Source: Eledone cirrhosa (lineage: Eukaryota). From it: 64,000 bases of DNA. The number at the start of each line of letters is the position of its first letter. Position 1 is the first letter of the stretch. Shown here in pieces: positions 13,101 to 61,898 of the stretch. The stretch covers positions 30,628,001 through 30,692,000 of the forward strand of contig OZ024750.1 of NCBI GenBank assembly GCA_964016885.1, read 5' to 3'. The position numbers and the translations under genes are program-made. Under the pieces are notes generated by a model. It had not been told where the DNA came from, searched no databases, and was given only the letters and a program-made list of their open reading frames with translations.

Positions 13101-16100
13101 TTTCTTTATATTCCCTGAGCAAATTAATAAGATTTGTTTTTATTGTACATAATTTGATGACTTGTTGGAGTGTATTAAAAGATAGCAATAATTTGTGATT
13201 AAATTGTTATCTTAAGCAACTCACTTTTTAATAGTTGTTGGCTGAGCGAAATTGTAAAAGCCTATGAGCAAATATAAAAAAAAATACACAAACAACATTT
13301 CCTTGTGTTATTACAACATTAGATAAAATAATTGAGCAATGTCGTTATATTTTGCTCTTATTGCACATTAATAGTGTTTCTATTTTTCGGCACAAATCCA
13401 TTACGGCAGTCCATTACTGGTACTTTATTTTATCGAATTAGTAAGTATGAAAGTCGAAGTTAACCTCGGCAGGATTTGAACTTAGAATACAAAGGACCAT
13501 AACAATACTGCAAAGCATGGTGTCTGACGCTCTACCAATACTTGTGTTGAGCTGGTCATTAATTTATGGTGGTCGTGCGTGGAGTAGAGCAATCGCTAGT
13601 TGAAATATTATGAACAAAACATTTTTATTTGCCGAAGAACATATTTTCAATACTGTTTGTGAATGTGACGAAGGAAATACATTCTGATATGGAACAGTGT
13701 ACAAAGTGTGTCTGTGAATAACATAATGTTACCTCATGTTGTTGTCAAGACATAATGGATTTCGTATATCCAGTTAGAAGATGAAACCTAGCCATCTCGG
13801 ATTAGTTATATTTCATGCCATGTGTAAACGTGTTTGAGGATAGCAAAATATGCGCGTTAATTATAATAATTAGTTAATAATATTACAAAATATACCTAAT
13901 TAAACTCTTTGCTTGAAATTTTATCATTCTTCGTTTATATATATATATATATATATATATATAGAGAGAGAGAGAGAGAGGGAGAGAGATTTATCTAGTC
14001 CTTCGCTCAAGATTAATCTATAAGTTTAGATGTTTGCCTTCGTTTAAGTAAATATTACAGTAAGATTTTTAATATAAACAACTACAAAAAACAATTAATA
14101 TTAAAACGAAAAAATTATCAATGATAAAAGAAGCGGATGCAACTTTTTTTTTTTATAAAGTTATATTCCTGTTTCTTTAAAGAACATTTCATTTTTGTTC
14201 TATTGTAGGCGAAATAATGCAATGGTTTAATAGGGAAGATATAACTTACGAATTATGTCTCTAACCGTGTAACGCTTTTTAAGTAGATAACTACAATTGA
14301 AAATACTAAAGAAATGGAACCAACAATTCAATTTGAAAGTCGTCTAGTGACAGTGTATTACTGGTACTTTATTTTATCGACCCCGTAACGATGAAAGGCA
14401 AAAATGCAAATGCTTAAAATTTAAATTGCCTTAATTCTATCGTCTGCTGTTTCATTAAAGGGAGATTATCGTCTGTATTTAATTCTATCGTCTACTGTTC
14501 CACTAAACAGATATACCTCCACTATCGTCTCTATTTATACATTTTAACTTATAACTTATACACATTTGATTTGAAATATTTTATCTAGTCCCCCCTCTCA
14601 ATATTATGATGATTTCTTTCGAATGAAACAGTTCTAGTCCTGTAGAAGCCATTTAAATATATAATTGAACTGAGTTAAAAATTCACAATATTTATAATTA
14701 AATAAGCTCATATATATATGTGTGTATTTATCTGTTTATTGTATTATATATAATGTGTGTATATACAGGATGTCCCCCCAAAATATATACACACTTCAAC
14801 AGCATTCTAATAACTATTGCCTGTACAGGTAATCAAAGTGTCAATCGAATGTTAGTTTCGTGTTTTAACAGTACAAATTTACAATACACACATAAAACCA
14901 GTGTATATACATACATGAGTGTGTATACACATACATGAATGTGTATATACAATATATATGTATATATATATAGACACATATATTCACGGTGCAACGGTAC
15001 ATTAAAATATAGATGCGGGAGAGGGGGGGTGTATATATAGGGGCGCTGGGGATAAAGGAGTGTAAAGCGTGTGTAATTGATATATTGAAGGAGAGGAGCG
15101 TGCAGCGATAGAGTAACAAATATATAGAGAGGGGGAGAGATGGTATTGAAGGGGAGGAGTGCAAAGCGAAAGAGTAAGAGATATATATAGAGACGGAACA
15201 GATAGAGAGAAACAGGCGTAAGTAACAGTGGAAGAGATATAGAGAGAGGTACTCTGATTGGTTGAAAATTAGCCAATGACATACGATCACCACCACCACG
15301 GCTATCCCCGAAAAATTTTTATAGAAGCTAGGCATATATGTTAGAACACGAAAAGTGAACATTCTGTTGTTTCACACTTTTCGTGTTCTAACAGATATGA
15401 GGGAGAGAGAAAGAGAGAGAGAGAGGTGAAGTTGGAAATAGCACGGAATATATATTTTAGGGTCTGTTTTTCTTTGATTCGTCATATATATATATATATA
15501 TATATATATATATATATATATATATAGGAACGAGTGGGACCCCGACGGCTGAGCTCAAGCCGTTTCGACGGCTAATTCAATACCCTAACTATTGAGTACT
15601 TTGGTGCGTTATGGTCCACCTGGTTCCTTACCACATTTCCTTCGTTATATATATATATATATATATATTGCTCATAGCTTCGTAACAAGCACACAGACTC
15701 TTTTACTTACATATACACACACATATCCTCTTAGTTTCGTACAGATGTATAACGCACACACACACACACACACACACAAGTATACGTTTTTTTTTTCATT
15801 TCAGGTAGACGCGCTCCATCATCCACTTTTCTAAAAAAATAAATCATACATAAAACGCCAGCATCAACAATTTTCCGAGAGATGGCACCATGAATGGACC
15901 TGTTATTTTTCTCTAAAAACATTTTTTCCAATTCCACCTCGCTCGTCCCTTCAATCTATCTAATTTCTCATTCTTTCTACTGATGAAGGACTAGCGTCCG
16001 AAACGTTAAGACACTCTTCCTGCTATTTCAAGCGTTAACCTAATATATTCCTTCCATATACTGTACCGATTGTGTTGTTATTTCTGTTTACCTTTTACAC

Positions 16101-59215: not shown

Positions 59216-61898
59216 ATATATATATAAACAACTATCTGGTTGTGGAACCAACCAACCAACCAGAAATTTATAAATTTGTAAATTTATAAATATTTAATAA
59301 ATTAAATTGAAGTGAAAGCAACTGGTGCGTGTGTTTCTTATTGGCAACATGACCCTCCCAAAGTATAACAATATCGGTTTCAACACACGATTTCAGATAA
59401 AGAATCTTGCTAAACAAATTCAGAAACGAAATATATACATATATATATATACATATATATATATATACATATATATATATATATACATATATATATATAC
59501 ATATATATATATATATACATATATATATATAAATACATATATATATATAATATATATATATACATATATATATATATATACATACATATATATATATATA
59601 TATATATATATATACATATATATATATATACATACATATATATATATATATATATATATATATACATATATACATATATATACATATATATATATATACA
59701 TATATACATATATATATATATACATATATATATATATATATATATATATACATATATATATATATATATATATATATACATATATATATATATATACATA
59801 TATATATATATATATATATATACATATATATATATATACATATATATATATATATATATATATACATATATATATATATATACATATATATATATATATA
59901 CATATATATATATATATATATATATACATATATATATATATACATATACATATATATATATATATATATATATATACATATATATATACATATATATATA
60001 TATATATATATACATATATACATATATATACATATATATATATATATATATATATATATATACATATATATATACATATATACATATCTATATACATATA
60101 TACATATATATACATATATATATACATATATATATATATATATACATATGTATATATATACATATACATATATATATATATATATACATATATATACATA
60201 TATATATATATATATATACATATATATATATATATATACATATATATATATATATATACATATATATATATATATATACATATATATATATATATACATA
60301 TATATATATATATATACATATATATATATATATATATACATATATATATACATATATACATATATATATACATATATATATATTATATATATATATATAT
60401 ACATATATATATATATATATACATATATATATATATATATATACATATATATATATATATATATATATATATATATATATATACATATATATATATATAT
60501 ATACATATATATATATATATATATACATATATATATATATATATATATATATATATATATATATATATATACATATACATATATATATATACATATATAT
60601 ATATATATATATATATATATACATATACATATATATATATACATATATATATATATACATATACATATATATATATACATATATATACATACATATATAT
60701 ATATATACATATACATATATATATATACATATATATACATATATATACATATATATATATATATATATATATACATACATATATATATATATATATATAT
60801 ATACATACATATATATATATATATATATATATATACATACATATATATATATATATATACATATATATATATATATATATATATATATATACATATATAT
60901 ATATATATATATATATATATATATATATACATATATATATACATATATATATATATATATATATATATATATACATATATATATATATATATATATATAT
61001 ATACATATATATATACATATATATATATATATATATATATATATATATACATATATATATACATATATATATATACATATATATATACATATATATATAT
61101 ATATATATACATATATATACATATATATATATATATACATATATATACATATATATATATATATATACATATATATATATATACATATATATACATATAT
61201 ATATATATATACATATACATATATACATATATATATATACAATATATATACATATATATATATATATATATATACATATATATATATATATATATATACA
61301 TATATATATATATATATATACATATATATATACATATATATATACATATATATATATATATACATATATATATATATATATATATATATACATATATATA
61401 TGTATATATATATATATATATATATGTATATATATATGTATATATATATGTATATATATATGTATATATATATATATGTATATATATATATATATATATA
61501 TGTATATATATATGTATATATATATATGTATATATATATGTATATATATATATATATATATATGTATATATATATGTATATATATATATGTATATATATA
61601 TGTATATATATATATGTATATATATATATATATATGTATATATATATATATATATATATATATATATGTATATATATATATGTATATATATATATATATG
61701 TATATATATGTATATATATATATGTATATATATATATGTATATATATGTATATATATATATGTATATATATATATGTATATATATGTATATATATATATA
61801 TATATGTATATATATGTATATATATATATATATATGTATATATGTAGATAAATCTACCAAGAGTTTACGGTAGTGTCCAATCCGTATGAAGAACTCAA

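Follow-up and report, generated by a model that had tools for sequence, protein, structure and literature searches.

What kind of element leaves a hammerhead ribozyme inside an inverted repeat within a dinucleotide microsatellite, and with a tail on one side only? The question is raised by a 64,000-nucleotide (nt) window of the Eledone cirrhosa genome (contig OZ024750.1 of assembly GCA_964016885.1, positions 30,628,001 to 30,692,000 of the forward strand). An earlier note on this DNA, made from the letters alone, saw in it one architecture of inverted repeat, hammerhead and one-sided tail, reused by at least five unrelated families. The window, whose own numbering is used here, is AT-rich, and about 15.9 kb of it is masked as dinucleotide repeat. 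Our analysis makes it quite probable that the insertions are 5'-truncated, endonuclease-bearing Penelope-like elements (PLEs) that leave their hammerhead-bearing 3' end in a dinucleotide repeat after twin priming on one RNA.

Hammerhead motifs and one-tailed inverted arms

Hammerheads were sought with a type I descriptor that allowed one mismatch, and the window was compared with 400 shuffles. Family A has four motifs (cores at 45291 and 57741 on the minus strand and at 46748 and 59176 on the plus strand, each scoring 11.5), family B has two (47457 minus and 52676 plus, 11.5), and C and D have one each (23593 minus, 11.5; 40589 plus, 14). Shuffled windows gave 0.02 matches at a score of at least 11. 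The core of CUGANGA, GAAA and UH with three helices is present in A, B, C and D, and in E with a stem I defect, an A.A mismatch at the first pair. The E core (15980 plus) scored 6, for which 0.24 matches are expected by chance, and is not significant on the descriptor score alone. E is, however, the sole match in the window to the features of published minimal hammerheads (an extra nucleotide at 9/10.1, G10.1-C11.1 and a palindromic stem III; PMC4209133), with 0 matches in 1500 shuffles. The intact-core motifs listed by the earlier note therefore stand: those of A to D lie far above the shuffles, E fits the minimal form despite its mismatch, and the hammerhead motifs are real.

Other searches were less sensitive. 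A previous version of the descriptor agreed on A, B and D and overlooked C, while a stricter one recovered no family, owing to the 9/10.1 bulge or the U.U pair. Rfam returned nothing at gathering score for the window, and its E-value scan gave no hammerhead among the 150 of 433 matches listed, in which microsatellite-like miRNA matches dominated. One further descriptor match (29119 minus, score 10) overlaps a repeat resembling a short interspersed nuclear element (SINE) and was taken as chance. The CTGATGA sites at 24562, 24663, 25296 and 35561 lie in another SINE-like family, have no GAAA partner and were also rejected.

The motifs differ in structure. The A hammerhead (46743..46787, plus; copies at 45252-45296 minus, 57702-57746 minus and 59171-59215 plus) has a stem I of 5 bp, an extra nucleotide at 9/10.1, a stem II of 6 bp and a stem III of 2 bp, and all four copies are identical across the motif. 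The B hammerhead (52670..52720, plus; copy at 47413-47463, minus) has U.U at 10.1/11.1, a 3-bp stem II and a 4-bp stem III with a self-complementary loop, and it is predicted to reach the correct fold as a monomer if its core is kept open. In C (23540..23597, minus), stem I has 4 bp, U.U again occupies 10.1/11.1, stem II contains one C.C mismatch and stem III is palindromic. The A motif has neither a correct monomer fold, unlike B, nor a palindromic stem III, unlike C. D (40584..40670, plus) combines a 5-bp stem I and a long stem II with a 4-bp stem III closed by a 1-nt loop, and E (15975..16012, plus) lies within a stretch of about 300 nt that has (CA)n on either side. Decayed and half motifs are also present, as a 41-nt B fragment (14607-14647) with an altered loop II and a kept stem II, and as 3' halves in a mini-family and in a further family, F, which the earlier note did not list.

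Two inverted arms with a one-sided extension were found in seven insertions: two of A, one each of B, C and F, and two of the mini-family (23073 and 15526). This agrees with the earlier description of A, B, C and the mini-family at 23073. Every one of the seven has exactly one tail, which has a probability of 0.008 if the starts are independent with equal odds. This count leaves out the inverted repeats that lack both a hammerhead and a link to any of the families (11855-12826, 4047-4467 and 15339-15393), as well as the single-armed copies (D, E, 28890 and 14607). Tail lengths across the families range from 55 to 145 nt.

The first A insertion (A1, 45091..47001) is a near-perfect palindrome of PLE 3' ends, each with the end of a GIY-YIG coding region, a 3' untranslated region (UTR) and a hammerhead. 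The 3' ends of both arms face outward, the tail of about 55 nt is on the right (46947-47001), the arms are about 99-100% identical, and their junction (46013-46032) carries a 10-nt duplication. In the second (A2, 57542..59429), a tail-less left arm of about 1.22 kb (minus) meets a tailed right arm of about 0.67 kb (plus) at a junction with 5-nt microhomology and a 1-nt insertion (58754-58770). Here the tail-less arm is longer by about 590 nt, and the unpaired spacer is in its orientation. Within each A insertion the two arms agree in the state of a 22-nt indel and at three other variant sites, and the two insertions differ from each other. In B (47397..52803), the tailed arm is about 4 kb longer. 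An inverted tail-less arm (47397-48011, minus) is followed on the plus strand by the end of an open reading frame (ORF), a G-rich TG/TA microsatellite (about 48790-52200, within the likely 3' UTR), the hammerhead and a 67-nt tail (52737-52803).

Family C (23342..23874) lies between (TA)n tracts, with a tailed left arm (minus; tail of about 145 nt, 23342-23486) and a tail-less right arm whose core has decayed. Public reads support both ends. Loose ends that continue as (TA)n lie at 23342, in 84 contigs and 440 reads, and at 23488, in 21 contigs and 171 reads, and the ends recur in independent public runs, so C is a multi-copy family with two fixed ends at (TA)n. Its abundance is high (3853 contigs in X1 and 4881 reads in X12, contig depth not being copy number), and a few matches were also found in two other organisms. 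An exact search of metagenomes with a stretch of C gave 0 matches.

The remaining families are shorter or more decayed. The mini-family palindrome (23073..23273) has a tail of about 75 nt and keeps the 3' half of a hammerhead (GAAA at 23154); a second copy (15526..15645) joins an inverted tail-less arm directly to a right piece that is tail only, and a third (28890..29030, minus) is a single tailed arm adjoining (TA)n. No CTGANGA was found in this family, and the kept half consists of GAA, a 5-bp stem III and a GUC site. The idea that its GAAAC is a mere hairpin loop was dropped once the 5-bp stem III and GUC were found in three of the four arms. A shuffled window contains 8.6 such halves, and the minimum-free-energy fold favours another hairpin, so the half-hammerhead claim depends on context. 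Family F (22687..23068) is an older palindrome, in which 117 of 145 aligned positions still agree, with a tail of about 85 nt on the left and a 3'-half hammerhead with a palindromic stem III, and it has no intact core. The arms of C, F and the mini-family have diverged.

For D and E, neither an inverted arm nor a second copy was found in the window. The full combination of inverted repeat, hammerhead and tail was ascribed to at least five families but is complete in A, B and C alone. An inverted arm is missing from D and E, and the mini-family has half a hammerhead. Microsatellite targeting is borne out, but the statement that all elements are bounded by microsatellites fails for D, which has a TG-type microsatellite on the right only, with the nearest masked block on the left 1.17 kb away.

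Endonuclease ends and the tail motif

The 3' end of the A ORF (58023..58769, minus; shorter copies at 45594-46016, minus, and 46023-46445, plus) resembles the Nematis/Neptune type, with the end of a reverse transcriptase (RT) thumb, a CX4CxxC linker and a GIY-YIG domain with CCHH residues (Pfam E-value 2e-5). Its stop codon is about 300 nt upstream of the hammerhead. The closest relative is an RT-domain protein of Octopus vulgaris (58% identical), weak RVT_1 matches were found in four of the five A relatives tested, and relatives L001 and L002 carry RT upstream of the endonuclease. Since its relatives have this order, A appears to be a PLE with a C-terminal endonuclease, of the Nematis/Neptune type and, by eye, closest to Nematis. 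No hammerhead was found in the 440 and 280 nt downstream of L001 and L002, stretches that are uninformative.

The A tail likely encodes the start of the ORF. An ATG with the likely first codons lies at 46921..47001 (plus; copy from 59349), and the tail is in frame with the ATG at 46921. The best ungapped match of the tail peptide is Met1 of P0172, among 27,592 positions in 29 homologs, a score reached by 2 of 300 shuffles. A tail of this kind fits reverse transcription that starts within the ORF 5' end (PMC11167929). It would also lend indirect support to an arrangement of partial-tandem pseudo-long terminal repeats (pLTRs); no full-length copy, and so none with direct partial-tandem pLTRs, is present in the window. 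A similar idea for F and other tails, that they encode a Hydra N-terminus, had no support from hidden Markov models (HMMs) and was dropped.

Judged by its sequence, B is a Hydra-type PLE. Its GIY-YIG end (48007..48597, plus) has a CxCX5C linker, CxxC before E and CxH after N, which are all three cysteine signatures of the C-terminal endonuclease of Hydra elements, and the stop codon is about 4 kb upstream of the hammerhead. Among the 12 B homologs over 580 aa, YRDD is present in 12, DKT in 9 and RW[KR] in 5. Pfam found no RT family in five B homologs tested, and none of 12 candidate relatives in viral contigs was a B relative. The RT core itself is absent from the window for both A and B. With GIY-YIG ORF ends in A and B, RT in their relatives, and Hydra-like hammerheads in B, C and D, the PLE origin proposed earlier is upheld. 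Naiad elements were considered and rejected for A and B; Naiads have an N-terminal endonuclease and no canonical hammerhead, while A and B show endonuclease, stop codon, 3' UTR and hammerhead in that order.

The tails of B and the mini-family have a motif in common, RCTC, a loop and then AT-H-GAGY-AC, which is predicted to form a hairpin (52742..52763, plus, in B; also 23204 plus, 28961 minus and 56026 plus). In one of the 36 pairs tested, the B tail and a mini-family tail agree at 14 of 15 nt, which 1 of 2000 shuffles equalled, while the other two mini-family copies gave 49 and 198 of 2000 shuffles. The strict pattern of RCTC, 8-22 nt and AT-H-GAGY-AC-Y has four matches in the window (B, two mini-family copies and 56026) against 0.11 per shuffle; it was derived from B and the mini-family, so 56026 is the only independent match. 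The outer stem pairs in all four, and 56026 has a two-sided change of G-C for A-U. In B, C, F and both mini-family copies examined, the start of RCTC lies 4-6 nt beyond the tail-less junction (background 2.5%), and in A it is absent there; in C and F, only the first half of the motif is clear. By eye, the motif is also present in four of the six supplementary Hydra consensi of File S7 (Hydra-2_Amil, Hydra-1_Ajap, Hydra-2_Ajap and Hydra-1_Crog) and partial in Hydra-1_Amil and Hydra-1_Obim. A loose form of the pattern was unspecific, with 3.2 matches in each shuffled window, and the hairpin does not stand out in folding energy (z -1.9 to +0.4 in B and the mini-family). The motif is likely an RT-positioning signal of the Hydra clade.

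B, C, F and the mini-family look like one clade, probably together with D, and C, D, F and the mini-family are probably Hydra-type PLEs like B. This likeness, and the fact that the insertion structure is a published PLE structure (PMC8557442), contradict the view that unrelated families reuse one architecture.

The independent match at 56026 lies in a 565-nt unique block between two TA arrays (55998-56562), which also carries an imperfect second copy of the motif near 56467. The block, in which neither a hammerhead core nor a match to PLE coding sequence was found, is possibly another Hydra-related piece.

Routes to a one-tailed inverted insertion

In the mechanism we propose, the RT-endonuclease would nick both strands of the (TA)n target, and two cDNAs would be primed on one uncleaved RNA. 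One cDNA would begin at a distal internal start and so carry the tail, and the other at a proximal start 55-145 nt upstream. Synthesis of both would end prematurely, in many cases at one common point, and the two would be joined head to head. The private variants shared by the two A arms point to one template RNA. The template at the tail-less junction reads TAT or ATAT in four of five families (A, C, F and the mini-family; B has 1 nt only), a possible pairing of 3-4 nt with a TA primer. Since the cleavage site is upstream of both starts, the template would be uncleaved there and the hammerhead would be copied passively. The hammerheads in inverted insertions are also predicted to be inactive in cis, because motifs on opposite strands cannot make the usual tandem dimer and read-through RNA of C becomes a long hairpin (predicted as a single fold of -293.6 kcal/mol with the hammerhead sequestered). 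No direct head-to-tail tandem of any hammerhead family was found in the window.

Several results weigh against this reading. No two-sided covariation was seen within any hammerhead family; of the C variants listed, one majority change turns G.U into A-U (23585) and another opens a terminal pair (23569). The 2-bp stem III of A is not palindromic, and its self-duplex is predicted at +1.4 kcal/mol. The HMM search found A and B only, and C, D, E, F and the mini-family have no coding match in the window. The tail-peptide match of A comes from 1 of 13 full-length homologs, and Nematis was preferred to Neptune by eye in the Fig. S2 alignment, without a tree. The shared arm variants may stem from gene conversion or from one source locus. 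Finally, the ends here are always mixed, while the Poseidon study (PMC11167929) reports no strand difference in start site in vitro.

One possible alternative, which we hold as a minority view, is that C, F and the mini-family are truly non-autonomous, ORF-less parasites derived from the pLTR end of Hydra elements and moved in trans by means of their common tail signal. The case is best for the mini-family, whose four arms from three insertions all lose similarity just upstream of GAAA (about 8-25 nt), none with the ribozyme 5' half. The abundance of C in public reads also favours it, and non-autonomous PLE derivatives have been published (PMC8557442; bioRxiv 10.64898/2026.07.22.740005). Against it, contig depth is not copy number, the window lacks head-to-tail tandem units, and reads and contigs of C extend past the centre of the window copy (loose ends at 23630-23695). 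The earlier note called several families ORF-less, but truncation suffices to strip the ORF: with 3' UTRs of about 0.3 kb in A and 4 kb in B, a copy as short as C, which retains about 170 nt, lacks an ORF anyway. Non-autonomy is in any case compatible with the twin-priming mechanism. We tentatively suggest a combined form, in which the tail hairpin of Hydra PLEs positions the RT and couples twin priming on one RNA, each two-armed insertion would thereby receive exactly one tail, and short ORF-less parasites such as the mini-family would need the hairpin and not a whole ribozyme.

A less probable explanation is that a single tail-primed cDNA turns back on itself where it was truncated and serves as its own template, after which the endonuclease resolves the product at a fixed site and leaves a one-sided tail. 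Four of the seven insertions (A1, C, mini-family 23073 and F) are nearly symmetric, as this would predict. It would also account for private variants common to both arms, and Craig et al. ascribe the tail to endonuclease resolution (PMC8557442). Under fold-back, however, the tailed arm should in every case exceed the other in length, while in A2 the tail-less arm is the longer and in mini-family 15526 the tailed piece has no arm overlap. A fold-back from the tail cannot yield the A2 spacer or the tail-only piece. Since arm lengths vary independently, it is excluded as the sole route, and two head-to-head primings are favoured.

That the palindromes are DNA elements like miniature inverted-repeat transposable elements (MITEs) or assembly fold-back artefacts with chance hammerheads is largely refuted and very improbable: although A1 has nearly identical arms and the region is repeat-rich with a 200-N gap, the descriptor matches far exceed shuffles, the arms of C, F and the mini-family are diverged, both C ends recur in independent runs, and arms hold RT-linked GIY-YIG coding sequence.

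Neighbouring repeats and known systems

Other features of the window were also recorded. Long degenerate TA arrays surround A1, B and A2 (44520-61850), and their plus-strand interruptions are almost only C; G-rich patches occur near 53900 and at 61400-61850, and the array inside the B 3' UTR is G-rich instead. A 324-aa ORF (62736-63710, plus), whose N-terminus weakly resembles Myb/SANT and which also has poly-Q and CCCH-like repeats, is possibly ORF1 of another retroelement. Inverted arms of 221 nt at 11855-12826 (99% identical, 530 nt apart) have no hammerhead, tail or microsatellite and are MITE-like. Two abundant repeat families, which we take to be SINE-like, lie at 1234-1421 and more than ten other sites, and at 24354-24572, 25091-25306 and 35475-35589; members of the second terminate in CTGATGA and thereby imitate half of a hammerhead. 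Such abundant repeats, presumably of an octopus type, and the O. vulgaris relative of A both suggest an octopus as host. Two related elements (18800-19320 and 39230-39500), each built around a GA tract and with CTAGT at the end, lie in opposite orientation and are presumably Helitron-like. Minisatellite arrays at 3156-3890, 8397-9674, 19480-20069, 31931-32253 and 33162-33673 contain no hammerheads.

The architecture itself is already known. Craig et al. 2021 (PMC8557442) described PLEs with an inverted 5'-truncated copy, a bias toward microsatellites and a tail of 30-40 bp, often at one end only, and Goubert et al. (PMC8969392) restate the same structure. For O. vulgaris, a repeat annotation (PMC13282606) gives 31 recently active PLE families, with hammerheads unmentioned in the part available to us. 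In the Craig et al. supplement, nearly all Hydra families insert in (TA)n and one is from Octopus (File S1), and among Hydra hammerheads U.U at 10.1/11.1 is frequent, as is a stem III of 4 bp closed by a loop of 0-2 nt (File S2). None of six window motifs matched a family among these authors' consensi. The 3' ends of Naiad_Obim and Naiad_Ovul (File S5) have a short stem followed by GAAAC, like the mini-family half motif, and are otherwise dissimilar.

B resembles Hydra clade elements, which include Hydra-1_Obim from Octopus and Penelope-13_HM with its inverted 5'-truncated copy, in its cysteine-flanked C-terminal GIY-YIG domain; like C, it also has a 3' hammerhead and an insertion in (TA)n. 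B and C have the Hydra U.U core flank, and C, D and F have the short-loop 4-bp stem III. In contrast, the Hydra-1_Obim hammerhead differs from every one in the window, the B 3' UTR carries about 3.4 kb of microsatellite, and Hydra-type tails here measure 67-145 nt, longer than the lengths stated for PLEs. A is like Nematis/Neptune elements in its RT thumb, linker, endonuclease residues and following 3' UTR with hammerhead, and its short linker is like that of the Nematis rows of Fig. S2, a placement made by eye and not by an RT tree; it differs in its non-palindromic stem III.

E and A share the extra nucleotide and G10.1-C11.1 with the minimal hammerheads of Cervera and de la Pena 2014 (PMC4209133), and E also the palindromic stem III; B and C differ in their U.U and longer stem III. 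In that work, motifs occur in pairs on opposite strands, separated by 100-700 bp, and for the most part singly, as products of truncated PLEs. Non-LTR retrozymes (bioRxiv 10.64898/2026.07.22.740005) are similarly short, ORF-less and pLTR-derived with a type I hammerhead, but they form head-to-tail tandems, whereas the window has head-to-head inverted pairs or single ends.

The closest functional parallel is the Poseidon element PAc of Anolis. As described by Frangieh et al. 2024 (PMC11167929), its protein nicks both strands and extends them, with two internal start sites for reverse transcription in the ORF 5' end that explain the tail, and hammerhead cleavage is not required. In PAc as in the window, the 3' ends fall at two fixed sites downstream of the hammerhead, the template RNA is uncleaved (in the window, probably so), and the two ends of A are likely inside the ORF start, as in PAc; it belongs to a different clade, and here each insertion has one end of each kind. 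A targeted literature search, older subscription papers aside, found no published description of the tail motif or test of arm geometry. Arm geometry separates fold-back from twin priming, a step left unvalidated in the available part of the Frangieh et al. study. To the known architecture the window adds new PLE families and, possibly, a predicted hairpin common to the tails of one subgroup. This motif may act in cis as a signal for the Hydra RT, and with its help short repeats flanked by (TA)n that lack a classification could be placed in a clade.

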